From: Escherichia coli | Lineage (GTDB): Bacteria; Pseudomonadota; Gammaproteobacteria; Enterobacterales; Enterobacteriaceae | Direction: 5' to 3' (one strand) | DNA: 64,000 nucleotides | Assembly: GCF_030384885.1 (NCBI RefSeq) | Contig: NZ_CP128614.1 | Shown: piece after piece, positions 1-42,083 of the stretch | Layout: each line of letters opens with the position of its first letter | How positions within the stretch are numbered: the first letter of the stretch is position 1 | Notes under the pieces: generated by a model | The model's database searches: none | Seen by the model: only the letters and a program-made list of their open reading frames with translations | What the model was told of the DNA's origin: nothing | Position numbers and translations under genes: made by a program

Positions 1-78
1 GAGGCGAGCGGCCTGAGGATCGGCTACCTGATCGATCCCGACTGCACGCTGGTGCGGCTGATCCAGAACCCCGACTGA
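1..78 (+). CDS. bleMBL: 3' end of a bleomycin-resistance (VOC/glyoxalase-fold) gene, probably ble(MBL); start lies outside the window
   Basis: Frame 1 is open from position 1 to TGA at 76-78 (…IGYLIDPDCTLVRLIQNPD*), a typical Ble-family C-terminus; trpF starts 4 bp downstream, as in blaNDM-ble-trpF arrays. Confidence 0.4.
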   Translation, partial: EASGLRIGYLIDPDCTLVRLIQNPD

Positions 79-82
79 CCGC

Positions 83-721
83 ATGCCCGCGAAAATCAAG
101 ATTTGCGGGATCAGCACACCCGAGGCGCTCGATGCGACCATCGCGGCGCGGGCGGACTATGCCGGGTTGGTGTTCTATCCAGCGTCGCCCCGTGCGGTTA
201 CGTCGAATGTCGCGGGCGCTTTGACATCGCGCGCAGCTGGCCAGATCGCCATGGTCGGTTTGTTCGTCGATGCGGATGATGCTGTCATCGCCGACGCACT
301 GGTGGCAGCCAAGCTGAACGCGCTGCAGCTGCACGGTTCGGAATCGCCCGAACGCGTGGCCCAGTTGCGCGCGCGGTTTGGCAAGCCGGTGTGGAAGGCG
401 CTGCCCGTCGCCAGCGCCAGCGATGTCGCACGCGCCGCAGCCTATGCCGGGGCGGCGGACTTGATCTTGTTCGACGCCAAGACCCCCAAAGGCGCGCTGC
501 CCGGCGGCATGGGGTTGGCGTTCGACTGGTCGCTGCTGGCCGGATATCGCGGTGCCTTGCCGTGGGGGCTGGCAGGCGGGCTAAATCCGACGAATGTTGC
601 CGAGGCGATTGCGCGCACCGGAGCGCCGCTGGTCGATACCTCCAGCGGCGTCGAAAGCGCGCCGGGCGTCAAGGATACCGACAAGATTACCAATTTCGCC
701 TTTGCGGTGCGCTTGGCCTAA
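83..721 (+). CDS. trpF: Phosphoribosylanthranilate isomerase
   Basis: 212-aa ORF with the TrpF (PRAI) fold signature; position between ble-like tail and dsbD/tat matches the conserved blaNDM downstream segment. Confidence 0.8.
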   Translation: MPAKIKICGISTPEALDATIAARADYAGLVFYPASPRAVTSNVAGALTSRAAGQIAMVGLFVDADDAVIADALVAAKLNALQLHGSESPERVAQLRARFGKPVWKALPVASASDVARAAAYAGAADLILFDAKTPKGALPGGMGLAFDWSLLAGYRGALPWGLAGGLNPTNVAEAIARTGAPLVDTSSGVESAPGVKDTDKITNFAFAVRLA

Positions 722-731
722 ATCGCGTCGA

Positions 732-1763
732 TCAATAGGCGTCGTTCAGCGCAAAGATCGGCTTGCGGGTGCGCCACTGCCCTCGGGTGAAGTCGGGAAA
801 ATCTAACGTGCGATTGCCCTCAGCAATCGATTGTTCCGACAGAGGCGTGATCGCGCTCCAGGCCAGCGCGTCGTAAATGTCGATTGGCATCGGGGCCTTG
901 GCCTTCAGCGCCTCGACAAAAGCGTGGATCACGAACCAGTCCATCCCGCCATGCCCGGCCCCTGCCGCCAGATCGGCGTAGCGTTTCCATAGCGGGTGAT
1001 CGTATTTCGCAAACCAGCCCTCGGCAGGCTCCCAGCGGTGCGGCTGTGGGCTCTTGCCCTCCAGATAGATCGACTTGTTGACGTCCATCCACAGCCCCTC
1101 GGTGCCTTGCACCCGAAAGCCGAGAGAATAGGGGCGCGGCAGCGAGGTGTCGTGGCACAGCATGATCGTTTCACCATTAGTGCAGCCGATCATGGTGTTG
1201 ACCACATCACCCAGTGCGAATTTCACCTCGGCGTTGGGATGATCGGCAGAGCCGTTCTTGACGACATAATCATGCAGCCCGCGCGCCTTACAGCCGAAGC
1301 CGCCAGCGCCCGCTTCGCCCGGCAACGCGACCTTCAGGGTGCGGGTCTGCGGCGGGTAGCACACGCCGGCATCGGCGCAGCCCTGGTACTTCACGGTCAG
1401 GGTGGTCGCGCTCGCGCCGGCCGCGGGCGTGCCGGTGAGGGTGCCGAGCAATTCCTTGCGGTAGGTTTCGACGTCGCCGAAGAATTCGTCGCGGTAGGCC
1501 TTGCCCTTCGGCAGCGCCATGGTCGCGCCGGTGAAGGCGGCATCGGCCTTGACCGAGGTGCGGTGCCGGTACAGGTAATAGCCGTCGGCGATCCGCCAGC
1601 GCACCTCGATGCGGTCCGGCGCGGTGGCCTGCGCGGACAGGACGAAGACCTCGTCGACCGGCGGCAGTTCGAAGTCCTGGGCGACGGCCGAGGTCGCGGG
1701 CAGCGCAAGCAGCAGGGCGAGCCCGGCCAGCCAGCGGCGCAGGCGGATCGTGGATGCGGTCAT
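732..1763 (-). CDS. dsbD: Twin-arginine signal protein with DsbD N-terminal-like domain (the tat/dsbD gene of blaNDM contexts)
   Basis: 343-aa ORF; N-terminus has an RR-containing signal peptide (RLRRWLAGLALLLALPATSAVA); convergent with trpF. Confidence 0.65.
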   Translation of the reverse strand: MTASTIRLRRWLAGLALLLALPATSAVAQDFELPPVDEVFVLSAQATAPDRIEVRWRIADGYYLYRHRTSVKADAAFTGATMALPKGKAYRDEFFGDVETYRKELLGTLTGTPAAGASATTLTVKYQGCADAGVCYPPQTRTLKVALPGEAGAGGFGCKARGLHDYVVKNGSADHPNAEVKFALGDVVNTMIGCTNGETIMLCHDTSLPRPYSLGFRVQGTEGLWMDVNKSIYLEGKSPQPHRWEPAEGWFAKYDHPLWKRYADLAAGAGHGGMDWFVIHAFVEALKAKAPMPIDIYDALAWSAITPLSEQSIAEGNRTLDFPDFTRGQWRTRKPIFALNDAY

Positions 1764-1843
1764 TGGCTCAGTTTACCGGTCGGCTCTCGGCGGCCAGCCA
1801 TTGCAGGTATTCGGGCAGGCCGGACGCGGCTTCGACCGCGAGC

Positions 1844-3997
1844 GGGTATAGGAAGTATAAACCACCTTTTTGCTCCTCATCCGAAGTATCTTACCTGAAA
1901 TTCCCTCACTCGTTTACCGCTCAAGCCCCAATTTTAACTGCCGGTCCAGCCTAAACCGCTCTAATAAGGTTCGATTTGGCGGTAAAATCTCTAGCCTGAT
2001 AGCTCGAGAGATACAAACTGCCCCACCGCCCCGTTTAAAAGTTGGCAGTGTTGAGCAGTGTTGGATTTGGGGTCGTCAGTCAAAGAGACGACTCTGTGAT
2101 GGATCGAACAGGCTGGGAGTCAGTGGCGGCGCTCGTTCTGGTGGCAGCTCACGCTGCTTGGCGGCATTCGCCTTGGCTGTTTTCTGTTTCAGATGCTTGA
2201 GAATCTGCTCAATGACCTTCGGATCTTCGATGCTGGCAATCACTTTGACGTGACCGCCGCAGTGTTCGCAGACTTCAATATCAATATTGAAGACTCGCTT
2301 GAGGCGTTGCATCCAGGTCATGGCGCGGTGGCGCTCTGCAGGACTCTTGTCACGCCAGTTAGTATCGAGACCTTCCGATTTGTCGGGCTTCTTGCCCCGC
2401 TTGGCGGGTGTTACTTGAACTCGGTGTTTGCTGTTCGGTGCAAAGACGCCGTGGAAGCGTGTGAGGTTGACTCGCGGCTTAGGTACCAACGCAGCGAGTT
2501 TGGCGATGAAGTCCAGCGGCTCGAAGATCACATGGGTGGTGCCATTGCGGTACGGAGTTTTGAGCTCGTAACGCACCTGCCCATTGGCGGTTAATGCCAG
2601 ACGTTTTTCTGAAACCGCTGGCCGACTAATGTAGCGACACAAGCGCTCAAGCTTATCCCGCTGATGCGCTTCGGCCATCACACCGGCGTGTAGCGAGAAA
2701 CCAGCATGGTTGGCTACTCGACTGCTTGAGTCGGCTTTATCCTCACGCCCTGGCAAGGTTTGCAGGGTGAAGACTTTGCGCCCTTGCTGGGGGCCGACGG
2801 CAATGCGATACGTAACCGAAGCACCATGTAATTGAGTCAGCGTATCGTCTTCGCCCTCTTCCAGTGTCAACCACGTATTCTCGGCATCACGCTCCAAAAT
2901 CCCACGCTTTTCCATGCAGCGAGCGATGCGATGGCTGAGGGTGTGAGCGAGCGTATTCAGCTCATCGTAAGTGGGTGCCTTGACACGATGGAAGCGTTGC
3001 TTGCCATAGTCATCTTCGGCATAGACACCATCGAGAAACAGCATGTGGTAGTGGACATTGAGATTTAGCGCGGAGCCAAAGCGTTGGATAAGAGTCACTG
3101 AGCCAGTTTGTGCAGAGGCTTTGGTGTAACCGGCTTTTTTGATCAGATGAGTTGAGAGTGTACGATAGACGATACTCAAGACCTGGCCCATCAGCTGGGG
3201 ATGGCGAGCCAGCAAAAAGCGTAGCTGGAAAGGAAAGCTGAGCACCCACTGGCGAATGGGCTCCTTGGGGAAGACTTCGTCTATCAGCAGCGCCGCACTC
3301 TCGGCCATCCGGCGGGCACCGCAGCTAGGGCAAAAGCCGCGTCGTTTACAGCTGAAGGCGACCAGACGCTCGTGATGACAATCCTCGCAGCGAACCCGCA
3401 TGAAACCATACTCCAGACGGCCACATTGGAGGAGGTCGTTGAATTCTTGTTGGATGTAGCGAGGCAGGTGTTGACCTTGGGCTTCGAGTGAGGCTTTGAA
3501 GGCTGGGTAGTGCTGCTCAACCAGCTGGTAGAGCAGCGTCTGGTCGGGTTGGTGGCGTTCGTAACCGTTTGTTTGAGTGGGCGATTGACTCGCCGTGGCG
3601 TTCCTTGCCAGCGACATGGGTATCCTCCGCTGATACTGTGGTTATGTACAGTATCAGCGGCTTGCGTTCAGACGTCCAGTCTGGCCCTAGACATCGCTAA
3701 ATGCTTAACCCGCAATAGCCCTCACGAGTTGTTATCAGCCACTACCGGTTGAGCGAGAAGGTTTTGGGTTCAGGGTGCTATTGCTCCACCAATCACAATA
3801 CTGAAGCCCCAACTGTTATCAGTTGGGGCTTTTTCTTGTCTGTTTGCGGCGGTTGCGTTTTATCGGTAGTCGTCGAGCTCTGCACCATCCCACATAAGAG
3901 CTTAACGGTGCGATCTTCAACGCCATCACACAAAACTTTCTTTTTCACGCACAGTCAACTTATTGGATGTTTTATTAACAACCCAAAAGGAGATATT
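1844..3997 (-). mobile_element. ISCR1: ISCR1 (IS91-like rolling-circle element); boundaries approximate
   Basis: Contains the 513-aa orf513 transposase; oriIS-like end (GGTTTATACTTCCTATACCC on the element strand) near 1844; placed immediately downstream of sul1 as in complex class 1 integrons. Confidence 0.8.
2076..3617 (-). CDS. ISCR1 transposase (orf513)
   Basis: 513-aa ORF beginning MSLARNATASQSPTQTNGYERHQPDQ…, matching the ISCR1 Orf513 protein as recalled. Confidence 0.93.
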   Translation of the reverse strand: MSLARNATASQSPTQTNGYERHQPDQTLLYQLVEQHYPAFKASLEAQGQHLPRYIQQEFNDLLQCGRLEYGFMRVRCEDCHHERLVAFSCKRRGFCPSCGARRMAESAALLIDEVFPKEPIRQWVLSFPFQLRFLLARHPQLMGQVLSIVYRTLSTHLIKKAGYTKASAQTGSVTLIQRFGSALNLNVHYHMLFLDGVYAEDDYGKQRFHRVKAPTYDELNTLAHTLSHRIARCMEKRGILERDAENTWLTLEEGEDDTLTQLHGASVTYRIAVGPQQGRKVFTLQTLPGREDKADSSSRVANHAGFSLHAGVMAEAHQRDKLERLCRYISRPAVSEKRLALTANGQVRYELKTPYRNGTTHVIFEPLDFIAKLAALVPKPRVNLTRFHGVFAPNSKHRVQVTPAKRGKKPDKSEGLDTNWRDKSPAERHRAMTWMQRLKRVFNIDIEVCEHCGGHVKVIASIEDPKVIEQILKHLKQKTAKANAAKQRELPPERAPPLTPSLFDPSQSRLFD

Positions 3998-4021
3998 TAG
4001 CGGGCGGCCGGAAGGTGAATG

Positions 4022-4861
4022 CTAGGCATGATCTAACCCTCGGTCTCTGGCGTCGCGACTGCGAAATTTCGCGAGGGTTTCCGAGAAGGTGATTGCGCTT
4101 CGCAGATCTCCAGGCGCGTGGGTGCGGACGTAGTCAGCGCCATTGCCGATCGCGTGAAGTTCCGCCGCAAGGCTCGCTGGACCCAGATCCTTTACAGGAA
4201 GGCCAACGGTGGCGCCCAAGAAGGATTTCCGCGACACCGAGACCAATAGCGGAAGCCCCAACGCCGACTTCAGCTTTTGAAGGTTCGACAGCACGTGCAG
4301 CGATGTTTCCGGTGCGGGGCTCAAGAAAAATCCCATCCCCGGATCGAGGATGAGCCGGTCGGCAGCGACCCCGCTCCGTCGCAAGGCGGAAACCCGCGCC
4401 TCGAAGAACCGCACAATCTCGTCGAGCGCGTCTTCGGGTCGAAGGTGACCGGTGCGGGTGGCGATGCCATCCCGCTGCGCTGAGTGCATAACCACCAGCC
4501 TGCAGTCCGCCTCAGCAATATCGGGATAGAGCGCAGGGTCAGGAAATCCTTGGATATCGTTCAGGTAGCCCACGCCGCGCTTGAGCGCATAGCGCTGGGT
4601 TTCCGGTTGGAAGCTGTCGATTGAAACACAGTGCATCTGATCGGACAGGGCGTCTAAGAGCGGCGCAATACGTCTGATCTCATCGGCCGGCGATACAGGC
4701 CTCGCGTCCGGATGGCTGGCGGCCGGTCCGACATCCACGACGTCTGATCCGACTCGCAGCATTTCGATCGCCGCGGTGACAGCGCCGGCGGGGTCTAGCC
4801 GCCGGCTCTCATCGAAGAAGGAGTCCTCGGTGAGATTCAGAATGCCGAACACCGTCACCAT
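4022..4861 (-). CDS. sul1: Sulfonamide-resistant dihydropteroate synthase Sul1
   Basis: Translation from the internal Met ([23 protein letters not shown]…) is Sul1; the ORF-track start at 4948 is an upstream extension. Confidence 0.95.
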
Positions 4862-5202
4862 GGCGTCGGCCTCCGCAGCGACTTCCACGATGGGGATCGG
4901 GCGAGCAAAAAGGCAGCAATTATGAGCCCCATACCTACAAAGCCCCACGCATCAAGCTTTTGCCCATGAAGCAACCAGGCAATGGCTGTAATTATGACGA
5001 CGCCGAGTCCCGACCAGACTGCATAAGCAACACCGACAGGGATGGATTTCAGAACCAGAGAAAGAAAATAAAATGCGATGCCATAACCGATTATGACAAC
5101 GGCGGAAGGGGCAAGCTTAGTAAAGCCCTCGCTAGATTTTAATGCGGATGTTGCGATTACTTCGCCAACTATTGCGATAACAAGAAAAAGCCAGCCTTTC
5201 AT
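4855..5202 (-). CDS. qacEdelta1: Truncated SMR quaternary-ammonium efflux protein QacEdelta1 (3'-conserved segment)
   Basis: 115-aa [30 protein letters not shown]… abutting the sul1 start. Confidence 0.95.
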
Positions 5203-5304
5203 GATATATCTCCCAATTTGTGTAGGGCTTATTATGCACGCTTAAAAATAATAAAAGCAGACTTGACCTGATAGTTTGGCTGTGAGCAATTATGTGCTTA
5301 GTGC

Positions 5305-5364
5305 ATCTAACGCCGGAGTTAAGCCGCCGCGCGTAGCGCGGTCGGCTTGAACGAATTGTTAGAC
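5305..5364 (-). other. attC (59-base element) of the aadA2 cassette
   Basis: Imperfect inverted repeat immediately after the aadA2 stop, with core sites GTCTAAC … GTTAGAT on the cassette strand. Confidence 0.55.
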
Positions 5365-5365
5365 A

Positions 5366-6157
5366 TCATTTACCAACTGACTTGATGATCTCGCCTTTCA
5401 CAAAGCGAATAAATTCTTCCAAGTGATCTGCGCGTGAGGCCAAGTGATCTTCTTTTTGTCCCAGATAAGCTTGCTTAGCTTCAAGTAAGACGGGCTGATA
5501 CTGGGCAGGTAGGCGTTTTATTGCCCAGTCGGCAGCGACATCCTTCGGCGCGATTTTGCCGGTTATTGCGCTGTACCAAATGCGGGACAACGTAAGCACT
5601 ACATTTCGCTCATCGCCGGCCCAGTCGGGCTGCGAGTTCCATAGCTTCAAGGTTTCCCTCAGCGCCTCGAATAGATCCTGTTCAGGAACCGGGTCAAAGA
5701 ATTCCTCCGCTGCCGGACCTACCAAGGCAACGCTATGTTCTCTTGCTTTTGTAAGCAGGATAGCTAGATCAATGTCGATCATGGCTGGCTCGAAGATACC
5801 CGCAAGAATGTCATTGCGCTGCCATTCTCCAAATTGCAGCTCGCGCTTAGCCGGATAACGCCACGGGATGATGTCGTCATGCACGACAAGGGTGACTTCT
5901 ATAGCGCGGAGCGTCTCGCTCTCGCCAGGGAAAGCCGAAGCCTCCATAAGATCATTGAGCAATGCTCGCCGCGTCGTTTCATCAAGCTTTACGGCCACAG
6001 TAACCAACAAATCAATATCGCTGTATGGCTTCAGGCCGCCATCCACTGCGGAGCCGTACAAATGCACGGCCAGCAACGTTGATTCCAGATGGCGCTCAAT
6101 GACGCTTAGCACCTCTGATAGTTGGTTCGAAATTTCGATGGTCACCGCTTCCCTCAT
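5366..6157 (-). CDS. aadA2: Aminoglycoside (3'')(9) adenylyltransferase AadA2 (streptomycin/spectinomycin resistance)
   Basis: 263-aa ORF MREAVTIEISNQLSEVLSVIERHLESTLLAVHLYGSAVDGGLKPYSDIDLL…, recognised as AadA2. Confidence 0.9.
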   Translation of the reverse strand: MREAVTIEISNQLSEVLSVIERHLESTLLAVHLYGSAVDGGLKPYSDIDLLVTVAVKLDETTRRALLNDLMEASAFPGESETLRAIEVTLVVHDDIIPWRYPAKRELQFGEWQRNDILAGIFEPAMIDIDLAILLTKAREHSVALVGPAAEEFFDPVPEQDLFEALRETLKLWNSQPDWAGDERNVVLTLSRIWYSAITGKIAPKDVAADWAIKRLPAQYQPVLLEAKQAYLGQKEDHLASRADHLEEFIRFVKGEIIKSVGK

Positions 6158-6162
6158 GATGT

Positions 6163-6453
6163 CTAACGGGCGAGGTAAGCCGACCGCAGAATGCGGGTCG
6201 GCTTGACCGAAATGTTAGAACCAGAAGCCAAAACGGATAACTTGAATTTGGCGACGGGCGCTAACCGTGAAAAAACGCTGCGCCACCGAGGCGGCACAGC
6301 ACTGCAAAAACGATAGCTGCTTGCGCTTGCTACGCAAGGGCTAGAGGCCAAAAAGACTGAAAACCTGCGCAGCCCATGCAGGCGAAGCCCGGAAAAAAGG
6401 CAAAACAGGCACTGAATAACGCCTGAAAAGCTAAATGCCGTTTGAATAAACAT
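6163..6453 (-). CDS. gcuF: Gene cassette of unknown function gcuF (orfF) of the dfrA12-gcuF-aadA2 array
   Basis: 96-aa ORF sitting between dfrA12 and aadA2 in the same orientation. Confidence 0.6.
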   Translation of the reverse strand: MFIQTAFSFSGVIQCLFCLFSGLRLHGLRRFSVFLASSPCVASASSYRFCSAVPPRWRSVFSRLAPVAKFKLSVLASGSNISVKPTRILRSAYLAR

Positions 6454-6564
6454 GAGCTAAATAAAGCTGGGTTTCAGTGGTGCTAACGTTGGACGTAACG
6501 AGAGCCGGAGCGCAGCGGAGGGAACCAAAATGCGCAGCATTTTGGCGTCCCGTTGACGGAATGG

Positions 6565-7062
6565 TTAGCCGTTTCGACGCGCATAAACGGAGTGGGTGTA
6601 CGGAATTACAGCTTGAATGGTTTCGGTTGAGACAAGCTCGAATTCTGTTTCGTTGAGCATTGGGAAGAAGGCGTCACCCTCGAAGGTTTGATGTACCTCA
6701 GATAGAAACACGCCGTGGGCGTGAGGTAGTGCCAGAGTGTATATCTCAGCTCCGCCCGCGACGTAGAGTTCATTGCCGAGTTCGGATGCCAAAGCGATAG
6801 CGTGCGACAGCGTTGAAACAACTACGCAGCCAGTGGCGCGGTAGTTAGCTTGGCGTGAGATTACCAATGTGTGACGGTTCGGTAGAGGCTTGCCGATAGA
6901 CTCAAAGGTCTTTCGCCCCATGACAACGACTTTTCCCTCAGTGAGTCTGCGAAAAATCTTCTGCTCACCCGGAATTTTCCAGGGGATATTAGGACCATTG
7001 CCAATAACCCGATTGGCTCCCATCGCAGCAACGAGATAAATGCGTACTGATTCCGAGTTCAT
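6565..7062 (-). CDS. dfrA12: Trimethoprim-resistant dihydrofolate reductase DfrA12
   Basis: 165-aa ORF MNSESVRIYLVAAMGANRVIGNGPNIPWKIPGEQKIFRRLTEGKVVVMGRKTF…, recognised as DfrA12. Confidence 0.92.
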   Translation of the reverse strand: MNSESVRIYLVAAMGANRVIGNGPNIPWKIPGEQKIFRRLTEGKVVVMGRKTFESIGKPLPNRHTLVISRQANYRATGCVVVSTLSHAIALASELGNELYVAGGAEIYTLALPHAHGVFLSEVHQTFEGDAFFPMLNETEFELVSTETIQAVIPYTHSVYARRNG

Positions 7063-7063
7063 A

Positions 7064-7135
7064 TGGCTAACTTTGTTTTAGGGCGACTGCCCTGCTGCGT
7101 AACATCGTTGCTGCTCCATAACATCAAACATCGAC
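7064..7135 (-). other. attI1 recombination site / first-cassette boundary (approximate)
   Basis: …CTAAAACAAAGTTAGCC followed by the dfrA12 ATG on the cassette strand, between Pc/intI1 and the first cassette. Confidence 0.5.
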
Positions 7136-7206
7136 CCACGGCGTAACGCGCTTGCTGCTTGGATGCCCGAGGCATAGACTGTACAAAAAAACAGTCATAA
7201 CAAGCC

Positions 7207-8075
7207 ATGAAAACCGCCACTGCGCCGTTACCACCGCTGCGTTCGGTCAAGGTTCTGGACCAGTTGCGTGAGCGCATACGCTACTTGCATTACAGCTTAC
7301 CAACCGAACAGGCTTATGTCCACTGGGTTCGTGCCTTCATCCGTTTCCACGGTGTGCGTCACCCGGCAACCTTGGGCAGCAGCGAAGTCGAGGCATTTCT
7401 GTCCTGGCTGGCGAACGAGCGCAAGGTTTCGGTCTCCACGCATCGTCAGGCATTGGCGGCCTTGCTGTTCTTCTACGGCAAGGTGCTGTGCACGGATCTG
7501 CCCTGGCTTCAGGAGATCGGAAGACCTCGGCCGTCGCGGCGCTTGCCGGTGGTGCTGACCCCGGATGAAGTGGTTCGCATCCTCGGTTTTCTGGAAGGCG
7601 AGCATCGTTTGTTCGCCCAGCTTCTGTATGGAACGGGCATGCGGATCAGTGAGGGTTTGCAACTGCGGGTCAAGGATCTGGATTTCGATCACGGCACGAT
7701 CATCGTGCGGGAGGGCAAGGGCTCCAAGGATCGGGCCTTGATGTTACCCGAGAGCTTGGCACCCAGCCTGCGCGAGCAGCTGTCGCGTGCACGGGCATGG
7801 TGGCTGAAGGACCAGGCCGAGGGCCGCAGCGGCGTTGCGCTTCCCGACGCCCTTGAGCGGAAGTATCCGCGCGCCGGGCATTCCTGGCCGTGGTTCTGGG
7901 TTTTTGCGCAGCACACGCATTCGACCGATCCACGGAGCGGTGTCGTGCGTCGCCATCACATGTATGACCAGACCTTTCAGCGCGCCTTCAAACGTGCCGT
8001 AGAACAAGCAGGCATCACGAAGCCCGCCACACCGCACACCCTCCGCCACTCGTTCGCGACGGCCTTGCTCCGCAG
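7207..8075 (+). pseudogene. intI1: intI1 truncated at its 3' end by IS26
   Basis: N-terminal ~289 aa of IntI1 ([44 protein letters not shown]…) run into the IS26 inverted repeat at 8076. Confidence 0.9.
7294..7322 (-). promoter_or_regulatory. Pc: Integron cassette promoter Pc, variant PcW with TGN-extended -10
   Basis: On the cassette strand: TGGACA, 17-bp spacer, then TGG-TAAGCT; the corresponding intI1 codon 32 encodes Pro (IntI1 P32/H39). Confidence 0.75.
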
Positions 8076-8895
8076 GGCACTGTTGCAAAGTTAGCGATGA
8101 GGCAGCCTTTTGTCTTATTCAAAGGCCTTACATTTCAAAAACTCTGCTTACCAGGCGCATTTCGCCCAGGGGATCACCATAATAAAATGCTGAGGCCTGG
8201 CCTTTGCGTAGTGCACGCATCACCTCAATACCTTTGATGGTGGCGTAAGCCGTCTTCATGGATTTAAATCCCAGCGTGGCGCCGATTATCCGTTTCAGTT
8301 TGCCATGATCGCATTCAATCACGTTGTTCCGGTACTTAATCTGTCGGTGTTCAACGTCAGACGGGCACCGGCCTTCGCGTTTGAGCAGAGCAAGCGCGCG
8401 ACCATAGGCGGGCGCTTTATCCGTGTTGATGAATCGCGGGATCTGCCACTTCTTCACGTTGTTGAGGATTTTACCCAGAAACCGGTATGCAGCTTTGCTG
8501 TTACGACGGGAGGAGAGATAAAAATCGACAGTGCGGCCCCGGCTGTCGACGGCCCGGTACAGATACGCCCAGCGGCCATTGACCTTCACGTAGGTTTCAT
8601 CCATGTGCCACGGGCAAAGATCGGAAGGGTTACGCCAGTACCAGCGCAGCCGTTTTTCCATTTCAGGCGCATAACGCTGAACCCAGCGGTAAATCGTGGA
8701 GTGATCGACATTCACTCCGCGTTCAGCCAGCATCTCCTGCAGCTCACGGTAACTGATGCCGTATTTGCAGTACCAGCGTACGGCCCACAGAATGATGTCA
8801 CGCTGAAAATGCCGGCCTTTGAATGGGTTCATGTGCAGCTCCATCAGCAAAAGGGGATGATAAGTTTATCACCACCGACTATTTGCAACAGTGCC
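8076..8895 (-). mobile_element. IS26: IS26 (820 bp), wild-type transposase allele
   Basis: 14-bp terminal inverted repeats GGCACTGTTGCAAA at 8076-8089 and 8882-8895; no flanking target-site duplication. Confidence 0.95.
8128..8832 (-). CDS. tnpA26: IS26 transposase Tnp26 (Gly184)
   Basis: Translation MNPFKGRHFQRDIILWAVRWYCKYGISYRELQ… with …KRIIGATLGF…. Confidence 0.95.
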   Translation of the reverse strand: MNPFKGRHFQRDIILWAVRWYCKYGISYRELQEMLAERGVNVDHSTIYRWVQRYAPEMEKRLRWYWRNPSDLCPWHMDETYVKVNGRWAYLYRAVDSRGRTVDFYLSSRRNSKAAYRFLGKILNNVKKWQIPRFINTDKAPAYGRALALLKREGRCPSDVEHRQIKYRNNVIECDHGKLKRIIGATLGFKSMKTAYATIKGIEVMRALRKGQASAFYYGDPLGEMRLVSRVFEM

Positions 8896-9217
8896 CTCAA
8901 TAACGTGATCGAGGCCGATCACGGAAAGCTCAAGATACTGATCAAGCCGGTGCGCGGTTTCAAATCGATCCCCACGGCCTATGCCACGATCAAGGGATTC
9001 GAAGTCATGCGAGCCCTGCGCAAAGGACAGGCTCGCCCCTGGTGCCTGCAGCCCGGCATCAGGGGCGAGGTGCGCCTTGTGGAGAGAGCTTTTGGCATTG
9101 GGCCCTCGGCGCTGACGGAGGCCATGGGCATGCTCAACCACCATTTCGCAGCAGCCGCCTGATCGGCGCAGAGCGACAGCCTACCTCTGACTGCCGCCAA
9201 TCTTTGCAACAGAGCCC
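8896..9217 (+). mobile_element. IS6100: IS6100 3'-terminal fragment, truncated by IS26
   Basis: Encodes the C-terminal ~88 aa of an IS6-family transposase (…ALRKGQARPWCLQPGIRGEVRLVERAFGIGPSALTEAMGMLNHHFAAAA*) and ends with the IS6100-type inverted repeat TTTGCAACAGAGCC at 9204-9217. Confidence 0.85.
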
Positions 9218-9654
9218 GCCGTGCTAGTCTGCTCGGTGATGGTGGAGTGAAGCCAACCCGCAATCGGGTTATGAATCTGCATCGCGATTCGCAATCAGCT
9301 GTCTCTTGAGCATGTCGAACTCCTGCGATGTTATCTCGCCGTGCTCGTGCTGCTACACCAACTTGTCCAACTCATCCGCCACACCGCTCCCCACCACCTG
9401 CGATGGCCAGGTTGTTTGCTGGGCGCATTGGCGGAGTATCGTCTCGACCCGGGACACCCACACCGGCACAACCTTACGGGAGTGATTCACTGTCAAAGAA
9501 TCGGCCCGGTGCTCTGACGCAAGTATCGGGATGGTCACCATTTGTAAGCCGTAGACCTGAGTGGTGATCAAGACTTCGATACCACCGACCGTACCGGTAC
9601 TAATCGACGACGGTCGTGTTCGTCGCCTGCCGCAGGGACTCTGCACACCTCCGT

Positions 9655-10239
9655 TTACGCATGTGCCTGGAGGAGTTGGAAATCGTCGTGTTCGGGAAAC
9701 ATTAAACACAGGATGGCAGCGATCTGAGCCAGCACATGATCAGCTAGCTCACCATCCGGATCGACGGCCCACTGCATCGTCGCGCCAGCGATGACCGAGT
9801 GCAGGAGCAACTCAGCTGCCGCAGGAGCACCTGGGGGCAGTCGCTTGCGGATCCCCTCCACCACCGCGCGGTTCCGCTGGATCGCAAGCGTGCGTAGCTC
9901 CGGCACCTGGAGCTCGTACCAGGAGATGAGATAGTTCACCGAGAAGTCGTTGCGAGTGTTCATGCTCCGAACGAGCACCTGCAAAAATTCCCAGAGCCCT
10001 TGCGGCCCTGCGCCTATCGGTATCGCATTCAGGTAATGCCGCACCTGCTCGACGCCGCGCTCCATCATCCTCACCAGCAGCGTATCGCGGTTGGTGAAGC
10101 GCTGGATTAACGCTGCGCGGGAGAGCCCCACCTCCTTTGCTACTCCGCTGAGCGTGAACTCTATGGGACCGCAACGCTTCAGCACTACGGTGGCGGCCTC
10201 GAGTACCTCGTCATCGGACTTGAGCTTGGGGCGGGGCAT
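9655..10239 (-). CDS. mphR(A): TetR-family repressor MphR(A)
   Basis: 194-aa TetR-like ORF directly downstream of mrx and mph(A) in the canonical order. Confidence 0.88.
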   Translation of the reverse strand: MPRPKLKSDDEVLEAATVVLKRCGPIEFTLSGVAKEVGLSRAALIQRFTNRDTLLVRMMERGVEQVRHYLNAIPIGAGPQGLWEFLQVLVRSMNTRNDFSVNYLISWYELQVPELRTLAIQRNRAVVEGIRKRLPPGAPAAAELLLHSVIAGATMQWAVDPDGELADHVLAQIAAILCLMFPEHDDFQLLQAHA

Positions 10240-11477
10240 CAGTGTTCACCTTCTGTATGGGTTGGGGCGGAGGCTGTGGCTGCCGCCGCCATTGTAGCAA
10301 ATTGAAGACGGAGCGAGAGTAGAGCCACGAGCCCCGCAAACACGGCCGATACAACGAGGCCAGGGAGCGGACCAGCAAGGTCGACAAACGCGCCGGCCGC
10401 AAGCATAACCATGGGCGAGGCTGACAGCATCACCGCCGAGACCGTGCCGAGTACCCGGCCGAGAAGTTCTGGCGGCGTGCGGTTGTAGATGGCAGCGTTG
10501 AGAATGGGAGAGACTGAGCCGGTCAGCAGTCCCACGAGCGCGCCCAACAACATCAGCACCGGCACGCCTGGCAACTGTGAAAGCAGAAGCGAGCCCACCG
10601 CAGAGCCACAAAATGCCACCGCCAGCCAGTTCTGCGCTGATATCCGGGCGCCGACCGACGCATGAATGGCAATGCCAAGGAGACCACCAGCCCCCATCAT
10701 TGAGGAGAACAGCCCGAGCTCTGCTACTTGGCGTCCTGCATCTACAAACAGCGCAGGCATGATGACGCTGCCGTTGGCGCCAACGATGCCCACGAAGATC
10801 ATCACTATACCAAAGAGAGGGCGCAGCAGGGGTTCGCTCCAGAGAAAAGCGACGCCGGCGCGCATGGAGAGAGTCGCCGTCGTGGTCATCGTCCGAGCGG
10901 CACGCGCGGGAAGCACCCACGCGCCGAGCAGACCTGCAAGGACGGAGCAGAACGCCGTCAGCCCGAGCGTTGGCGCAGCGCCAAGCAGGCCGATTGCGGC
11001 CCCCCCAAGGGCCGGGCCACCTAGAATCGCGACGTTCCCGATCACCGCTTTCAGTGACGAGACGCGCTCAACGGAGAGCCCGGCGACGTGGCCGAGTTTG
11101 GGCAGCTCACTGTCCTGCGCGGCCATACCGGGTGCGTCGAACGCAGCACCGAGCACCACGCAAGCGATCAGCCCAGTGTTCGAGAGGGCGCCAACGGCAT
11201 CGAGCAGTGGGATGCTCGCCATGGCCACGCCGCCCACCACACCCGAGATCAATGCGACGGGCGCGCGCCCGAACCGATCGACGAGGCCACCACCAACCCA
11301 CGCGCCGATGATGGTCGCGATGACGCTGCTAGCGGCCGTGGCGCCCGCCCAGGCCGCGCTCTTTGTATGAGACAGGACGAACCATGGAAGCGCGAGGGCC
11401 GCCACCGCGTTGCCGATCCGGAAGAGAAAGGTCGCCGCGAACAGCGTCGCGAGCGGGCTATATCGACGTTCGCTCAT
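10239..11477 (-). CDS. mrx: MFS-type membrane protein Mrx
   Basis: 412-aa multi-transmembrane ORF between mph(A) and mphR(A). Confidence 0.88.
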   Translation of the reverse strand: MSERRYSPLATLFAATFLFRIGNAVAALALPWFVLSHTKSAAWAGATAASSVIATIIGAWVGGGLVDRFGRAPVALISGVVGGVAMASIPLLDAVGALSNTGLIACVVLGAAFDAPGMAAQDSELPKLGHVAGLSVERVSSLKAVIGNVAILGGPALGGAAIGLLGAAPTLGLTAFCSVLAGLLGAWVLPARAARTMTTTATLSMRAGVAFLWSEPLLRPLFGIVMIFVGIVGANGSVIMPALFVDAGRQVAELGLFSSMMGAGGLLGIAIHASVGARISAQNWLAVAFCGSAVGSLLLSQLPGVPVLMLLGALVGLLTGSVSPILNAAIYNRTPPELLGRVLGTVSAVMLSASPMVMLAAGAFVDLAGPLPGLVVSAVFAGLVALLSLRLQFATMAAAATASAPTHTEGEH

Positions 11478-12379
11478 TCCGCTGCGGCGAGCTGCGCCTT
11501 CGCCGCAGCGAGGTACTCTTCGTTACCCGAGTCGAGGGCGAAGAGTGCGTAGGTGACCGCCCCGAACGCAAGGCGCTCCGCGATGTGGTGGGCGAGCCGC
11601 GGCCACACCCGGCCACCGGCCGCTTCATACGTGAGGAGGAGCTTCGCGAGCCCCTCTTCACCAAAGACCATAAGGTGCGCGGCCATGTCGATGGCAGGGT
11701 CATCAACGCGGGCCTCGCTCCAGTCGATCATCCCGCTGACGCGCTCCGTGTTGTCGATGAGCACATGGCCCACGTAGAGATCGCCATGCACCACCACGGA
11801 GAAATCTGGCCACGACGAATCGTCGTCGAGCCAGCGCTGCCACCGGTGGAGGCGCTTGTCGTTCACCACGAACTCGCGTCGGACGCGGTCAACGTCGTCG
11901 GCCACCTTCTGACGGGCCTGCGTCGGTGTACGGATGAGCATCCCCGCATCCACGGCGGCGGAAATGGGGACGGCATGCAGGGCGGCGAGCGCGGTCGCGA
12001 AGCTCTCCGCGAAGACCTCCGAGTCCTGCGGCACGACCCAGTCGGGCGTGGACGAACCAGGCTGGATGACCATCGCAGTCGAGTCTTCGAGCATGGGATA
12101 GGCAACGAGCTCGGCGTTGGCCACGCGCCAGTCCGGCACCGCGAACGGCAGGCGATTCTTGAGCATTGCCAGCACCCGCGCCTCTGGTTCGACCTTCGCG
12201 CTTACCTCGGCTCGGCGCGGGATGCGCAGCACCCACCGACGTCCATCGTCGACGGTGGCGATCACGATCCTATAGTCGAGCCCAAGCTCATTGACAGTCA
12301 GCGGGCCATGGAGCTTGAGCCCATGTCGGGCTGCAAGTGCGTACAGTTGGGAGGTATCGGCGGTCGTGACTACGGTCAT
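11474..12379 (-). CDS. mph(A): Macrolide 2'-phosphotransferase Mph(A)
   Basis: 301-aa ORF MTVVTTADTSQLYALAARHGLKLHGPLTVNELGLDYRIVIATVDDGRRWVLRIPRR…, recognised as Mph(A). Confidence 0.95.
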   Translation of the reverse strand: MTVVTTADTSQLYALAARHGLKLHGPLTVNELGLDYRIVIATVDDGRRWVLRIPRRAEVSAKVEPEARVLAMLKNRLPFAVPDWRVANAELVAYPMLEDSTAMVIQPGSSTPDWVVPQDSEVFAESFATALAALHAVPISAAVDAGMLIRTPTQARQKVADDVDRVRREFVVNDKRLHRWQRWLDDDSSWPDFSVVVHGDLYVGHVLIDNTERVSGMIDWSEARVDDPAIDMAAHLMVFGEEGLAKLLLTYEAAGGRVWPRLAHHIAERLAFGAVTYALFALDSGNEEYLAAAKAQLAAAE

Positions 12380-12448
12380 GATTCACTCCTGAGGGCTTGA
12401 CGGGTTTAGCCACCTAAATGTAACAGTCACGTCGGTTATATTCAATCC

Positions 12449-13268
12449 GGCACTGTTGCAAAGTTAGCGATGAGGCAGCCTTTTGTCTTATTCAAAGGCC
12501 TTACATTTCAAAAACTCTGCTTACCAGGCGCATTTCGCCCAGGGGATCACCATAATAAAATGCTGAGGCCTGGCCTTTGCGTAGTGCACGCATCACCTCA
12601 ATACCTTTGATGGTGGCGTAAGCCGTCTTCATGGATTTAAATCCCAGCGTGGCGTTGATTATCCGTTTCAGTTTGCCATGATCGCATTCAATCACGTTGT
12701 TCCGGTACTTAATCTGTCGGTGTTCAACGTCAGACGGGCACCGGCCTTCGCGTTTGAGCAGAGCAAGCGCGCGACCATAGGCGGGCGCTTTATCCGTGTT
12801 GATGAATCGCGGGATCTGCCACTTCTTCACGTTGTTGAGGATTTTACCCAGAAACCGGTATGCAGCTTTGCTGTTACGACGGGAGGAGAGATAAAAATCG
12901 ACAGTGCGGCCCCGGCTGTCGACGGCCCGGTACAGATACGCCCAGCGGCCATTGACCTTCACGTAGGTTTCATCCATGTGCCACGGGCAAAGATCGGAAG
13001 GGTTACGCCAGTACCAGCGCAGCCGTTTTTCCATTTCAGGCGCATAACGCTGAACCCAGCGGTAAATCGTGGAGTGATCGACATTCACTCCGCGTTCAGC
13101 CAGCATCTCCTGCAGCTCACGGTAACTGATGCCGTATTTGCAGTACCAGCGTACGGCCCACAGAATGATGTCACGCTGAAAATGCCGGCCTTTGAATGGG
13201 TTCATGTGCAGCTCCATCAGCAAAAGGGGATGATAAGTTTATCACCACCGACTATTTGCAACAGTGCC
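12449..13268 (-). mobile_element. IS26: IS26 variant copy (820 bp) with Tnp26 G184N
   Basis: Same terminal repeats at 12449-12462 and 13255-13268; differs from the copy at 8076-8895 by GG to AA in codon 184. Confidence 0.93.
12501..13205 (-). CDS. tnpA26: IS26 transposase, G184N allele
   Basis: Translation identical to the first copy except …KRIINATLGF…. Confidence 0.93.
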   Translation of the reverse strand: MNPFKGRHFQRDIILWAVRWYCKYGISYRELQEMLAERGVNVDHSTIYRWVQRYAPEMEKRLRWYWRNPSDLCPWHMDETYVKVNGRWAYLYRAVDSRGRTVDFYLSSRRNSKAAYRFLGKILNNVKKWQIPRFINTDKAPAYGRALALLKREGRCPSDVEHRQIKYRNNVIECDHGKLKRIINATLGFKSMKTAYATIKGIEVMRALRKGQASAFYYGDPLGEMRLVSRVFEM

Positions 13269-14979: not shown

Positions 14980-15414
14980 ATGTCTGTTATCCTTGAGCAC
15001 ATTAGCAACAAGCCTTACGAAATGGCACCTTTTTTCAGTGATTTACTGAGCTGTGGAGTGATGAGTCCGTGCGCCGGGCATGAAGATAATGAATTAAATT
15101 TGCATGAATATGTAGTCCGTAACCGCCCCTCAACCTTCTTTGTCAGGGCGGCGGGCCTCAGTATGATCAATGCCGGTATCAATGATGGCGCTATTCTGGT
15201 TGTGGATCGGTCTTTAACGGCACGACACGGCTCTATCGTCGTTGCGCTGGTGGATGGAGAGTTCACGGTAAAGATCTTACACACGTATCCTGAGCTGCTT
15301 TTGATGCCTTCTAATCCAGCCTATAAGCCGATACGTGTAAATCCCGAATCCCTTGAGATATGGGGCGTCGTCACCTTTGCACTGAATCAGTTTAGCCATG
15401 TACATGCACGTTGA
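14980..15414 (+). CDS. umuD: UmuD/MucA-like SOS mutagenesis protein (S24 LexA-like self-cleaving peptidase)
   Basis: 144-aa ORF with a Cys-Gly cleavage dipeptide near residue 25 and an S24 serine motif (GLSMINAG). Confidence 0.8.
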   Translation: MSVILEHISNKPYEMAPFFSDLLSCGVMSPCAGHEDNELNLHEYVVRNRPSTFFVRAAGLSMINAGINDGAILVVDRSLTARHGSIVVALVDGEFTVKILHTYPELLLMPSNPAYKPIRVNPESLEIWGVVTFALNQFSHVHAR

Positions 15415-16657
15415 TATTAACGGGGCCTATGCGGCATTTGAGTGTGCGATGGATCCCAAGCTGGCAAAAAAGCCGCTCATCATAGCCAGCAATAACGATT
15501 CGTCCGTCATTGCAATGAATAAACTGGCTAAAAGCGTTGGTATTAAGCGTGGGACCCCAATTTTTAAGTGCAGGGATTTGATTCAGCAACACCAGATCGA
15601 AGTCCGGAGCTCTAACTTTACTTTGTATGAAGACTACTCAAATCGCTTCCATGAAACGCTGGAAAGCTTCGCGCCTCAATCGAGTCGATATAGCATAGAT
15701 GAAAATTTCATGTTATTGAAAAACATGAACAAGATAATAGATTATGAAGATTACGGCCGGTTGATCAGAAGTACACTTCTTCATAATCTGTCCCTTACCT
15801 GTGGTGTGGGGTGTTCAAGCACCAAAACCCTGGCTAAATTATGCACCTATGCGAGCAAACGATGGGCAGCTACAGGCGGGGTTGTAGTTTTGACTGATCA
15901 GGCCAGGATCAGGAAGCTCCTGGGCCTTATCAGTACCAGAGAAATATGGGGTATTGGTCAAAAGATCAGTGAACGCCTGTCGGCTTTCGGGATCATCACT
16001 GCCGGTGATTTTTATAATAGCGACGTTCGCTTTTTACGTAAAAGCTTTGGCGTTGAAATCGAGCGTACCTGGCGGGAACTGCATGGCGAACCATGTTTCC
16101 GGCTGCATGAATCCCCTCCTGTCCGGCAACAGATTATCGTTTCCAGAAGTTTTGGTCAGCGCCTTAATGAGATAGGCAAGCTACATGAGGCAGTTTCATT
16201 TTTTACCGCCCGGGCGGCAGAGCAGCTGCGCAAGGATGGCTCGTGGACCCGTCAAATCACAGTCTTCATTCAGAGCAGCAATTATGCGCAAGGTGAAAAC
16301 CGCTACAGCAATTGTGGTATCGAGCCGCTTACCGCTACACAGGACACCCGCGATCTGGTTGATGCAGCCATGACCATCCTGAACCGCATTTACAAACCCG
16401 GGATAGCGTATGCGAAAGCTGGGGTAATGCTCTCCGCTATGACTGACGGCACAGAGCAACTCAGCCTGTTTGATGAGCGCCCGGCCAGGCCTGGCAGTCA
16501 GGCACTGATGAAAGTTATGGACCGGTTCAATAAAGAAAAGCGCGGAGCTCTGTTTTTGCTGGGGGAAGGCATTCAACAGGATTTTCGTATGAAACAGGCC
16601 ATGCTATCACCGAGATATACGACCCGCTGGGATGAATTACTCGTTGTAAAAGCGTAG
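15398..16657 (+). CDS. umuC: UmuC/MucB-like Y-family translesion DNA polymerase
   Basis: 419-aa ORF overlapping umuD by a few codons; N-terminus (DINGAYAAFEC…PLIIASNND) is Y-family-like. Confidence 0.8.
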   Translation: MYMHVDINGAYAAFECAMDPKLAKKPLIIASNNDSSVIAMNKLAKSVGIKRGTPIFKCRDLIQQHQIEVRSSNFTLYEDYSNRFHETLESFAPQSSRYSIDENFMLLKNMNKIIDYEDYGRLIRSTLLHNLSLTCGVGCSSTKTLAKLCTYASKRWAATGGVVVLTDQARIRKLLGLISTREIWGIGQKISERLSAFGIITAGDFYNSDVRFLRKSFGVEIERTWRELHGEPCFRLHESPPVRQQIIVSRSFGQRLNEIGKLHEAVSFFTARAAEQLRKDGSWTRQITVFIQSSNYAQGENRYSNCGIEPLTATQDTRDLVDAAMTILNRIYKPGIAYAKAGVMLSAMTDGTEQLSLFDERPARPGSQALMKVMDRFNKEKRGALFLLGEGIQQDFRMKQAMLSPRYTTRWDELLVVKA

Positions 16658-22825: not shown

Positions 22826-25800
22826 CTACCTTTTATTTTCATTAAGCCACTGATCCGCTTTATCGACACGTGACTGGTAAGGCTCATTTGTGTTGCTCAG
22901 CTCTGACTTCATGTACTGAATGAATTCATCTGCTTTCTGAGGCCCAAAGCGTGGGTCATCCGTCAATTGCTGCCGGATAGCCCTTTCAGAGTTCTGCGCT
23001 GCATTCGCATAAGTCGAAACGCCGTCGCTGCTAATACTCTGATACCGGTCACTTACAGCTGCGACGCCATCAGACATCTGCATGTGATTAAGGACTTTAC
23101 CCTGGAGAGAATCAGGCATATTTGCAGGGTTAGAGGCATCATTTGCTATCGATGTCTGGGTTTGAAGGATGCCCGCTCCCGTAAGCATCTCATTTACCGG
23201 TTTCGCCCCAACGCTGGTTAGCGTATCCGAAACAAATTGCTGGCCCCCGAGTAGCGCACCAGAAATCGCGCCCCGCTCAGTGTTGGCCTCTATCTTTTCC
23301 CCAACCAAGCGATCTGTGACGGTCTGAGTGCGGTTACCAACGAGACCACCGCCCGACCCACCCTCTCCTAGGTTTGCCCGTACGACTGACTCAAGTGAAC
23401 CATCAGCTCTGTTATGAGTGTTGAAACTGCTATGGATGCTCTGAACGTCATTCATACTCCAGTTAACGTTATAGTTACCCAGTTCATTAAGGATCTTCTG
23501 GGTATCCGCTTTGAGCTGCTCTCTTTCGGCACCGGTAGCCATGGTGCTGGCACCATAGGTAAAGACAGCTTGCTGTGCCAATTCAGCTCGCTTATCGTCC
23601 CGGCTTAAGTTCGGGTTGTTGGCAACACGACTAAAGTAGTTATCAGTGTTATTAGATAAGCCACGAACTTGACCGCTCTGATACATACTGTTCAAAGCAG
23701 TGGCTCGTTGATCCATTCCATCACCAACCACCCGACCTCCGGTAGCCTTTTCCAGATCGTTAAATGTGCCTTCTGCATTTCTGACATCCTGACCTGAATT
23801 GACGACTTTCTCTACACCCTGATTATTCAGTACAGGGCCATTCGTTTTGAGAGAATTGAGCACATTCCTTTCTTCATCAGAATAAGTGCGGCCCACGTTG
23901 TTGTTATGTATTCCCTGAATATCGCCTTTGCCCGCGTTATCAAGGTTATACGGAGTAAAGCCAGCTTCACTTTTTCCAGGGACACGCTGAGTCGCGTCCT
24001 GAGCGTTGGAGGAAAGACCGAGTTTAGCCTGCGAATCAACACTTCCACCCAGTTCCCCTACGCGTGACGCACTCATCACGCCAGACGTATTTACGCTGTC
24101 AGGAGTTCTATCCTGTGCCTGAGTGATAGTATTAATTCCTGACCCTTCGCCTGAAATTCTGTCGAGCTGATTGGTGATAGGTAGCAGCTGCTGTGCATTA
24201 CCACCGAAGTCGGAAACCAGACTTTTAAGCAGGCTGGAGGTTTCACGGAGATCCTGTTTATTACTTTCGGCCGTCTCTCCCCGGGCGGTATCAATCGCAA
24301 TTTTTTGCTCACTGAAATCTCGTGTTGCAGCCACAAGCGCGTCAGTACGTTGAAGCTGCGAACCAAGCTGATTACTGGCCTTGAAGGTATCGTTATAGGA
24401 GTTGAATTTCTCCATAAACGCATTCTCATCCAGCCCATTCTTACGAGCAAAATTCCTTACATCATCATCACTGAAGTTTTTGTTGCGAATAGAATCGGAG
24501 AACCTGTCCAGGTTAATGCTTTGTTTAGAATCAAGGCTCATTCCACTATTGGAGCTGGCGTTAGTCGATACCGATGTAGAAATGTTTTGCGCCATCGTCT
24601 GTGTCGCCTGGTTCATTTTCGACGATGCTTCTTTAAACGCATTAGTATTGGATATCTGATCGCTGCTTACCTGAGACGCCGCTTTACTGAACTGGTCAGT
24701 CAAAGCAGAATCCTGGCTAAGCTGATTCGTGATTGCTTTTGAAAGGTCATTTGAAAGCGAGTCACTGCCTGTATTGGTCTTAGATGCGCCGCTACTCAAT
24801 TGCCCTGCTACAGCTGCTTTCAGCCCGGCTCCGTTGCCAGTTCCAGCACCTCCATTAAGCCCAGCGTTTAGAATAACATTTGAAGCAATGCTGGCCATCT
24901 GAGACGCACTCACCCCATGTTTCGTTGCAATACCTTCTGCTACAGAGGCACCAATCTTATCCGAGATCTGCTTCATTGTTTGCAGGTTGGTTGAGAACTG
25001 CTGGCTCGACTGTCCTGACCTTCCAATTTCACTCATCTGACTGTAACCAGCCTGGAATGAATTACTTGCCGCACTCATAACTGATGAGGTTACAGCTGAT
25101 CCTTGCCCCTGGCTGTTAGCGATACTTGAACCAGCATTCCACATTCCAAGACGGAAATTACTTGAATCAACTGCGCCGCCATCGCTGTATCCCTGACCGG
25201 TACTGGTCAAGGCGGTTCGTGTCACGTCACCAAATGAAGATTTACCGCTGTTAGGGCCATCCCATACTTTGGGCGTTACATGACCAGTATCCACCGGCGC
25301 ATCGGGGGTCACTCCCTTAACCGCATTCATCATCGGGTGAATCGACTGTGTCATCAGGAATAATGTGAGTACCGGAATCAGAGCATAAAGCGCGGAAGCA
25401 ACAGACAGGTATGAACTGTATGTTTCCGCAAGCCCTGGGAGCCCCATCCACGTGACGGCATTATTCTGGCTGTTGAGGGTGCTCCAGGTATCCAGATCGG
25501 CCGTCGCGACTTTCTTCACATACGCGTTGACCATTACTGCCGTAAGCGGCCACATATTCACGAAGAGAATAAGTTGCAAATATTTCGCCGCAGCGGCAAC
25601 ACCATTACCACCTAACGCCAGCAGCATAAGCAAAGCAAATGGAGCAACCATGTAAGCAAACATCTCAAGGAATGCGATTGCTGCTCCAGACAGTTGTAAC
25701 CACAACTGGCCCTGTGAAGCCATTGTGTTGGTTCGCTTCAGAGAAGCCTCAAACAACTGCATATCGGAAGCCAGACTGAGTGGGGTCTTATATTTGCTTG

Positions 25801-41315: not shown

Positions 41316-41316
41316 C

Positions 41317-42048
41317 ATGGATGCTTTCAATCTGCTGTGGAGCATTACGGGGGTAGCTTTCATTATCCTTATTTTCGTCGTGTTGCTGTGTCTGTTGGGT
41401 TTTATGACCTCTGCCATAGCGGAACGGCGGACTGCAAAGGCAATTGAATCTGGGCTTCCTGAAGAAGCTCAGGGGCTACTTAGTGATCTCACCTTTCAGT
41501 TGTCGGCTCATAGCACTACTCAGGTTGATCACATTCTCGTAGCCCCACATGGTATATACGTCATAGAGCAGAAAAACTACGTAGGCAAGCTCTACGGTAC
41601 TCTGGAGGAAAGCCACTGGCGGAAATGGACTCAGTCCCGAACCCTCAAGTTGCAGAACCCGTTTAAGCAAAACCAGGGGCACATCAGGGCTATTCAGTCT
41701 GCTCTTAAGGCTAGAGAACTGGAATGTATCAATGTCGTCATCATAAACGGACGTTGTAAGTTTGATGGCATCAAGCCGGAATGGTTATGTATGGGGATGG
41801 ACGATTTTATCCATAAAGTCAAACAACGACGAGGGCTACGGTTGTTCACACCGGAGTCTGTTCAGCACATCTGTTCGGTGTTGAAGTCAACAAGGAAGTC
41901 GCCAGGGCTCTATACGGACCTTACTCATATTCACAACATAACGACAAAGTACAAAGCCCCGATGAAATTCGAGCAACGAGTAACATACATTCTGCTCAAC
42001 TTTATCCATTATCTGTGGGCAAGTCTGTTCACTAAGCAGAAGCCTTAG
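41317..42048 (+). CDS. NERD-domain (nuclease-related) membrane-anchored protein
   Basis: 243-aa ORF with N-terminal TM helix and NERD-like motif (VDHILVAPHGIYVIEQKNYVGKLYG); start 2 bp after the peptidase stop. Confidence 0.55.
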   Translation: MDAFNLLWSITGVAFIILIFVVLLCLLGFMTSAIAERRTAKAIESGLPEEAQGLLSDLTFQLSAHSTTQVDHILVAPHGIYVIEQKNYVGKLYGTLEESHWRKWTQSRTLKLQNPFKQNQGHIRAIQSALKARELECINVVIINGRCKFDGIKPEWLCMGMDDFIHKVKQRRGLRLFTPESVQHICSVLKSTRKSPGLYTDLTHIHNITTKYKAPMKFEQRVTYILLNFIHYLWASLFTKQKP

Positions 42049-42083
42049 CGCTCTATCATTGGTAAGGCTGTAAAATGTCTGCA

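Follow-up and report, generated by a model that had tools for sequence, protein, structure and literature searches.

Which promoter transcribes the gene cassettes of this class 1 integron, how strongly does it do so, and can the array still be rearranged? These questions are raised by a 29-bp segment at 7294–7322 of the 64,000-nucleotide stretch of Escherichia coli DNA analysed here (the window; NZ_CP128614.1). We are highly confident that the full best explanation of the segment is the Pc promoter of a sul1-type class 1 integron, in its PcW-TGN-10 form, driving dfrA12-gcuF-aadA2. The original prediction had likewise called it the weak Pc strengthened by an extended -10 element, and had asked for a comparison with the catalogue of Pc variants; when that comparison was run, the fit was exact (Jové et al., 2010, PLoS Genet 6:e1000793, Tables 1 and 2), and nothing in the sequence contradicts the PcW-TGN-10 reading.

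The promoter lies on the minus strand, which the original prediction had left unstated while giving the coordinates and bases exactly. Read 5′ to 3′ from 7322 to 7294 the segment is TGGACATAAGCCTGTTCGGTTGGTAAGCT, made up of the -35 hexamer TGGACA (7322–7317), a 17-nt spacer (7316–7300) whose 3′ end is the TGN element TGG (7302–7300), and the -10 hexamer TAAGCT (7299–7294). PcW is defined as TGGACA and TAAGCT separated by 17 bp; in PcW-TGN-10 the C located 2 bp upstream of the -10 is replaced by G (Jové et al., 2010; PMC2791841). Nešvera and co-workers were the first to note this mutation. A PcW copy used for comparison (L039) has TCG where the window has TGG. The promoter overlaps codons 31–39 of intI1 on the opposite strand, the position homologous to that of the mapped Pc, and codons 31, 32, 38 and 39 read TTA, CCA, GTC and CAC (L, P, V and H), as in Table 3 of Jové et al. 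(2010). Codon 32 (CCA, Pro; 7300–7302) is the reverse complement of the TGG element and codon 39 (CAC, His) lies at 7321–7323, so that the integrase is IntI1 P32_H39, the variant that PcW-TGN-10 specifies; this promoter accounted for 16.8% of 321 integrons (PMC2791841). The predicted tie between promoter and P32 is therefore borne out. The -35, the 17-bp spacer, the -10, the G and the linked IntI1 residues all agree with the catalogue: every defining base, the location within intI1 and the accompanying P32_H39 are identical, and while the promoter shows no difference, the integrase that carries it is truncated here.

Downstream on the same strand lie the genes of three cassettes. The first, dfrA12 (6565–7062), matches NCBIfam DfrA12 over its full length (385 bits). 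The second, gcuF (orfF; 6163–6453), is an ORF of unknown function with no NCBIfam match, the identical gene in RefSeq being assigned to a DUF1010 protein. The third, aadA2 (5366–6157), is annotated as such in identical plasmid records, and its cassette begins at the core site GTTAGAC (6167–6161). The 3′-conserved segment begins at GTTAGAT (5311–5305) and, by the annotation of a collinear record, carries qacEdelta1 (4855–5202) and sul1 (4022–4861), also on the minus strand and together spanning 4022–5202. Cassette boundaries were taken from the core sites, in part by eye; a search for attC hairpins as ungapped inverted repeats failed to pick up the attC sites. A 5′-conserved segment (intI1, Pc and attI1), a cassette array and qacEdelta1-sul1, the components of a sul1-type (clinical) class 1 integron, are thus all present, with the 5′-conserved segment cut within intI1 by IS26. 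We take this dfrA12-gcuF(orfF)-aadA2 integron to be In27. Copies elsewhere have the same cassette order and the same 5′- and 3′-conserved segments. However, many of them retain a complete intI1 (for example L036 and L039), whereas the present copy is truncated by IS26, and some carry PcS or PcW with P2.

The truncation of the integrase gene by IS26, as the original prediction had it, is borne out. The intI1 remnant occupies 7207–8075 on the plus strand and keeps 289 of 337 native codons. The IS26 terminal repeat GGCACTGTTGCAAA interrupts the gene at 8075/8076; the element extends over 8076–8895, with terminal repeats at 8076–8089 and 8882–8895 and an IS6-family transposase gene on the minus strand (8128–8850). 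The NCBIfam integron integrase profile is matched only at positions 1–290 of 337, and a tblastn search with full-length IntI1 aligned residues 1–289 and detected no second integron integrase across the window. Six foreign codons from IS26 extend the reading frame to a stop at 8094, which yields a 295-aa chimera with the tail RALLQS. When compared with the full-length IntI1 of another plasmid, the remnant keeps R146, K171, H277 and R280 and has lost H303 and Y312. Since R146, H277, R280 and Y312 are key residues of integron integrases (PMC9229058), a functional IntI1, 337 aa long with all four residues, is not encoded. The integrase would be dead, its own recombinase activity having gone with the last 48 codons, Y312 among them.

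Whether this also freezes the cassettes depends on which enzyme is considered. The claim that the cassettes cannot be rearranged stands for the integron's own enzyme, which lacks Y312, but not in general: attI1 is intact, so that IntI1 supplied in trans, of which none is encoded in the window, could plausibly still move them, and the array is immobile in cis only. Even before truncation, exchange may have been slow at the excision step, as IntI1 P32_H39 excises 336-fold less well than R32_H39, with integration only about 3-fold lower (PMC2791841). The array is thus predicted to have been fixed first by a poorly excising P32 integrase and then by the loss of its C-terminus, a history in keeping with the published view that successful arrays are kept stable by strong promoters.

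Ahead of the remnant, on the plus strand, the hexamers TTGCTG (7152–7157) and TAGACT (7175–7180), 17 nt apart, are presumably PintI1, and the CTG-N10-CAG box CTGTACAAAAAAACAG (7179–7194), which overlaps them, is presumably a LexA site; the two together span 7152–7194 and the box is undisrupted. The literature describes a LexA site that overlaps PintI1 and remains whole unless P2 is formed (Jové et al., 2010; PMC2791841). Since promoter and box are intact, SOS induction could still lead to synthesis of the 295-aa product. It keeps the N-terminal region, which has been linked to attC binding (Jové et al., PMC2791841), and most of the catalytic domain, and the tyrosine is absent. It might be imagined that such a catalytically dead subunit, made during SOS, occupies attI1 or attC or poisons tetramers of IntI1 acting in trans and so protects the array, a proposal that we regard as very unlikely to be correct.

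The end of attI1 (7065–7131, minus strand) carries translation signals that bear on the first cassette. ORF-17 runs from 7131 to 7078 and ORF-11 from 7105 to 7067, the latter preceded by a GGAG Shine-Dalgarno sequence (7117–7114) 8 nt before its ATG and closed by a TAG within the crossover core GTTAGCC (7071–7065). This is the published layout of the ORF-11 leader (PMC8876359), with GGAG 8 nt upstream, the crossover spanned and the TAG formed by core-site positions 3–5; the translation comprises 12 residues including the Met, not 11. The dfrA12 ATG (7062) lies 8 nt into the cassette and 4 nt past the ORF-11 stop, and no Shine-Dalgarno sequence of dfrA12's own is present in TTAGCCAT. Because of this absence, the 4-nt gap and published tests of ORF-11 coupling with different cassettes devoid of a translation initiation region (PMC8876359), dfrA12 translation probably depends on coupling to ORF-11 by termination and reinitiation. 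The output of dfrA12 is then probably set by ORF-11 coupling as well as by promoter strength.

At the usual distance of about 7 nt from the -10, Pc transcription would start near 7286–7288, which agrees with PMC8876359, where the Pc and PintI1 starts are given as 100 bp apart. Published strengths were obtained with an identical promoter sequence fused to lacZ in E. coli, in a different construct: in one reporter assay PcW gained 15-fold through the TGN motif, compared with 25-fold for PcS, within the ranking PcW < PcH1 < PcW-P2 < PcW-TGN-10 < PcS (4.5-, 7-, 15- and 25-fold over PcW; PMC2791841), and a review gives 40 for PcW, 720 for PcW-TGN-10 and 1240 for PcS (PMC8876359). From these figures we infer that the promoter in the window would be about 15-fold above PcW and a little over half as strong as PcS, and the predicted "moderate to high expression" of the cassettes is a reasonable reading of the reporter data. 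Distal cassettes are less expressed owing to a position effect (PMC8876359), and aadA2, in third position, should be less expressed than dfrA12. Folding of the predicted 5′ untranslated region (7287–7040) gave no unusual structure (z = +0.6), and a riboswitch-like or attenuator interpretation of the Pc leader RNA was set aside as unwarranted on that value.

Other accounts of the locus deny the segment its role. One holds that the match is a chance resemblance within coding sequence, devoid of promoter function, and draws on the generic sigma-70 consensus scan, which did not flag Pc because TAAGCT matches the -10 consensus TATAAT at only three of six positions. Such a miss is what is expected of a weak -10 that relies on a TGN extension; for promoters of this kind the scan is uninformative, and its silence is no counter-evidence. 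A search for TGGACA-N14-TGN-TAAGCT with at most one mismatch returned a single match in the 64-kb window, against a chance expectation of 0.03 (a match arose in 3 of 100 shuffles). As the site is also the exact mapped position of Pc in intI1, with all flanking integron landmarks in register, and reporter fusions have been assayed with precisely this configuration (PMC2791841), coincidence is exceedingly improbable. Nor is it likely that the cassettes are transcribed mainly from elsewhere, be it P2 in attI1, a hybrid promoter with a -35 from an IS26 end, or a promoter internal to a cassette; we consider this highly doubtful. P2 does drive most transcription in PcW + P2 integrons (PMC2791841; PMC8876359), and one sampled integron with dfrA12 first (L039) has PcW with an active P2, so that there too a weak PcW is rescued, and again ahead of dfrA12. 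In integrons of that type, however, the rescue involves a GGG insertion, the LexA site is disrupted and IntI1 keeps R32, whereas the window has no insertion, an intact CTG-N10-CAG box and P32. An active P2 requires a 17-nt spacer generated by three inserted G residues (PMC2791841; PMC8876359). The P2 of the window (7178–7203, minus strand), with TTGTTA at 7203–7198 and TACAGT at 7183–7178, has the 14-nt spacer TGACTGTTTTTTTG without GGG; it is the inactive form and thus no rival promoter. The original prediction had itself named a transcript starting at P2 as the observation that would speak against Pc, and the sequence excludes it. Ends of IS26 can supply a -35, but here TTGCAA is followed after 17 nt by AGGCCG; the outward hybrid was rejected on inspection, the -10 being missing at the correct spacing, and such a promoter would be some 760 nt upstream of Pc. 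The consensus scan of 4800–8900 found no sigma-70-like site on the minus strand (the cassette direction), with the reservation that the same scan misses Pc.

A different objection accepts PcW-TGN-10 and holds that expression is nevertheless low in this host or context, that translation and gene position set resistance, and that "moderate to high" overstates the case. An earlier study, the first report of the same mutation, found a gain of only 5-fold (cited in PMC2791841), and the size of the TGN effect does depend on assay and host; still, the 15-fold rise over PcW was accompanied in the same assay by an 8-fold shift in MIC (PMC2791841), and clinical Proteus isolates with PcW-TGN-10 resembled strains with strong promoters (PMC6491665). 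The absence of a Shine-Dalgarno sequence proper to dfrA12 would favour low output, yet ORF-11 coupling, where tested, leads to efficient translation of cassettes in first position (PMC8876359). Similarly, the convergent PintI1 is intact, but no influence of PintI1 on expression from Pc could be measured (PMC8876359). The third position of aadA2, which is subject to the position effect, also speaks for this objection, which on balance appears unlikely.

With PcW-TGN-10 as the cassette promoter, the following sequence of events can be proposed. The sigma-70 RNA polymerase of the host would bind the near-consensus -35 TGGACA and the poor -10 TAAGCT, the TG of the extended -10 offsetting the latter. 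Initiation near 7287 would proceed leftward on the minus strand through attI1, dfrA12, gcuF and aadA2 as one operon, and the transcript probably continues into qacEdelta1-sul1. Ribosomes terminating on ORF-11, 4 nt before the dfrA12 ATG, would probably reinitiate there. The G that creates the TGN motif is the same base pair that changes IntI1 codon 32 from Arg to Pro, and the stronger promoter and the poorly excising integrase therefore come together. The final 48 codons of intI1, that for Y312 among them, would later have been lost to IS26, so that the integron's own enzyme no longer reshuffles its cassettes. The outcome would be a fixed, constitutively expressed trimethoprim-streptomycin/spectinomycin operon. 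In practical terms, the Pc variant predicts constitutive and fairly strong expression of dfrA12 and aadA2 on the plasmid.

This arrangement is common. The 4.1 kb at 4800–8900 are 100% identical in plasmids of Escherichia, Klebsiella, Enterobacter and Raoultella, and at least 737 PLSDB records, among the best 5000 matches, cover at least 80% of the region. In a survey of 5,426 complete E. coli genomes, this part of intI1 was present in 3,006 records, 745 of which (25%) match the window at all 90 nt around Pc, the others differing at one to four bases. dfrA12 is joined as first cassette to this 5′-conserved segment in 816 records from 777 E. coli genomes. Sixty evenly spaced rows were sampled from these, and 46 were 100% identical over 555 nt; four non-identical copies that were fetched comprised two with PcW-TGN-10, one with PcS and one with PcW and an active P2. 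From these evenly spaced samples, at least about 77% of E. coli integrons with dfrA12 first are estimated to carry PcW-TGN-10, and conversely about five in six E. coli PcW-TGN-10 promoters, also by an estimate from sampled rows, precede dfrA12. PcW-TGN-10, PcH1 and PcS have all been reported with dfrA12-orfF-aadA2 (PMC6491665; PMC4129628). The exact IS26/intI1 junction recurs in 205 E. coli records (199 genomes) and 307 PLSDB plasmids, as counted with a 54-nt probe (27 + 27) that can seed only across the junction; this replaced an 80-nt probe that over-counted because fragments of intI1 and IS26 separated by as much as about 500 nt were merged. An IUPAC scan of one genome per GTDB species yielded 34 Pc loci (23 PcW, 6 PcH1, 3 PcS and 2 PcW-TGN-10), among which no readable first cassette was dfrA12; this sample of mostly environmental taxa is small and dissimilar, and all that can be taken from it is that, away from clinical plasmids, only a minority of Pc loci are PcW-TGN-10. 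Earlier work has documented the promoter variant and its tie to P32, the occurrence of the variant with this array, and the IS26-truncated module beside blaNDM-5, and all of them are widespread. The locus thus holds nothing new for integron biology, being an ordinary catalogued variant within an extremely common resistance module.

That module of NDM-5 plasmids is seen, for example, in pMyNCGM539 (LC744496), where IS26-truncated intI1-dfrA12-gcuF-aadA2-qacEdelta1-sul1-ISCR1-dsbD fragment-trpF-bleMBL-blaNDM-5 is collinear with positions 1–8895 of the window with two mismatches and has the identical IS26/intI1 junction. The window itself contains ISCR1 (2076–3617, minus strand), the dsbD fragment (732–1763, minus strand) and trpF (83–721). 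Its first 78 nt run to the stop of an ORF (...LVRLIQNPD*) that is, by collinearity, the end of bleMBL. In pMyNCGM539 bleMBL is immediately downstream of blaNDM-5, and blaNDM-5 probably lies just beyond the left edge of the window. A transcript from Pc would be convergent with trpF and, by the same collinearity, with ble and blaNDM-5, and these three genes would therefore not be driven by Pc. pMyNCGM539 is an IncF plasmid of E. coli, whereas the rest of the window is IncHI2-like: positions 30000–44000 are 100% identical to IncHI2-type plasmids of about 250–290 kb from E. coli, Salmonella and Enterobacter (such as pHS13-1-IncHI2), which places the NDM-5-type integron module on an IncHI2-like and not an IncF backbone.

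To the right of the integron, a directly oriented pair of IS26 copies (8076–8895 and 12449–13268) flanks a macrolide-resistance module, and 8076–13268 looks like a typical IS26 pseudo-compound transposon. It contains mph(A) (11474–12379), a gene for an MFS protein (10239–11477), presumably mrx, and an ORF of 194 aa (9655–10239) without an NCBIfam match that is likewise presumed to be mphR(A). An ORF at 8305–9162 has a C-terminal part that, judged by eye, resembles a fragment of the IS6100 transposase next to the first IS26. The backbone encodes a MobH-family relaxase (33129–36281) and TraD (36281–38365). Three long ORFs of 1317 aa (22826–26779, minus strand), 394 aa (46976–48160) and 258 aa (63221–63997) had no NCBIfam match at E ≤ 1e-10 and are probably uncharacterised IncHI2 backbone proteins. 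Also in the backbone part are a gene for a UmuC-type subunit of the translesion DNA polymerase V (15398–16657) and an IS4-family transposase gene on the minus strand (52142–53260).
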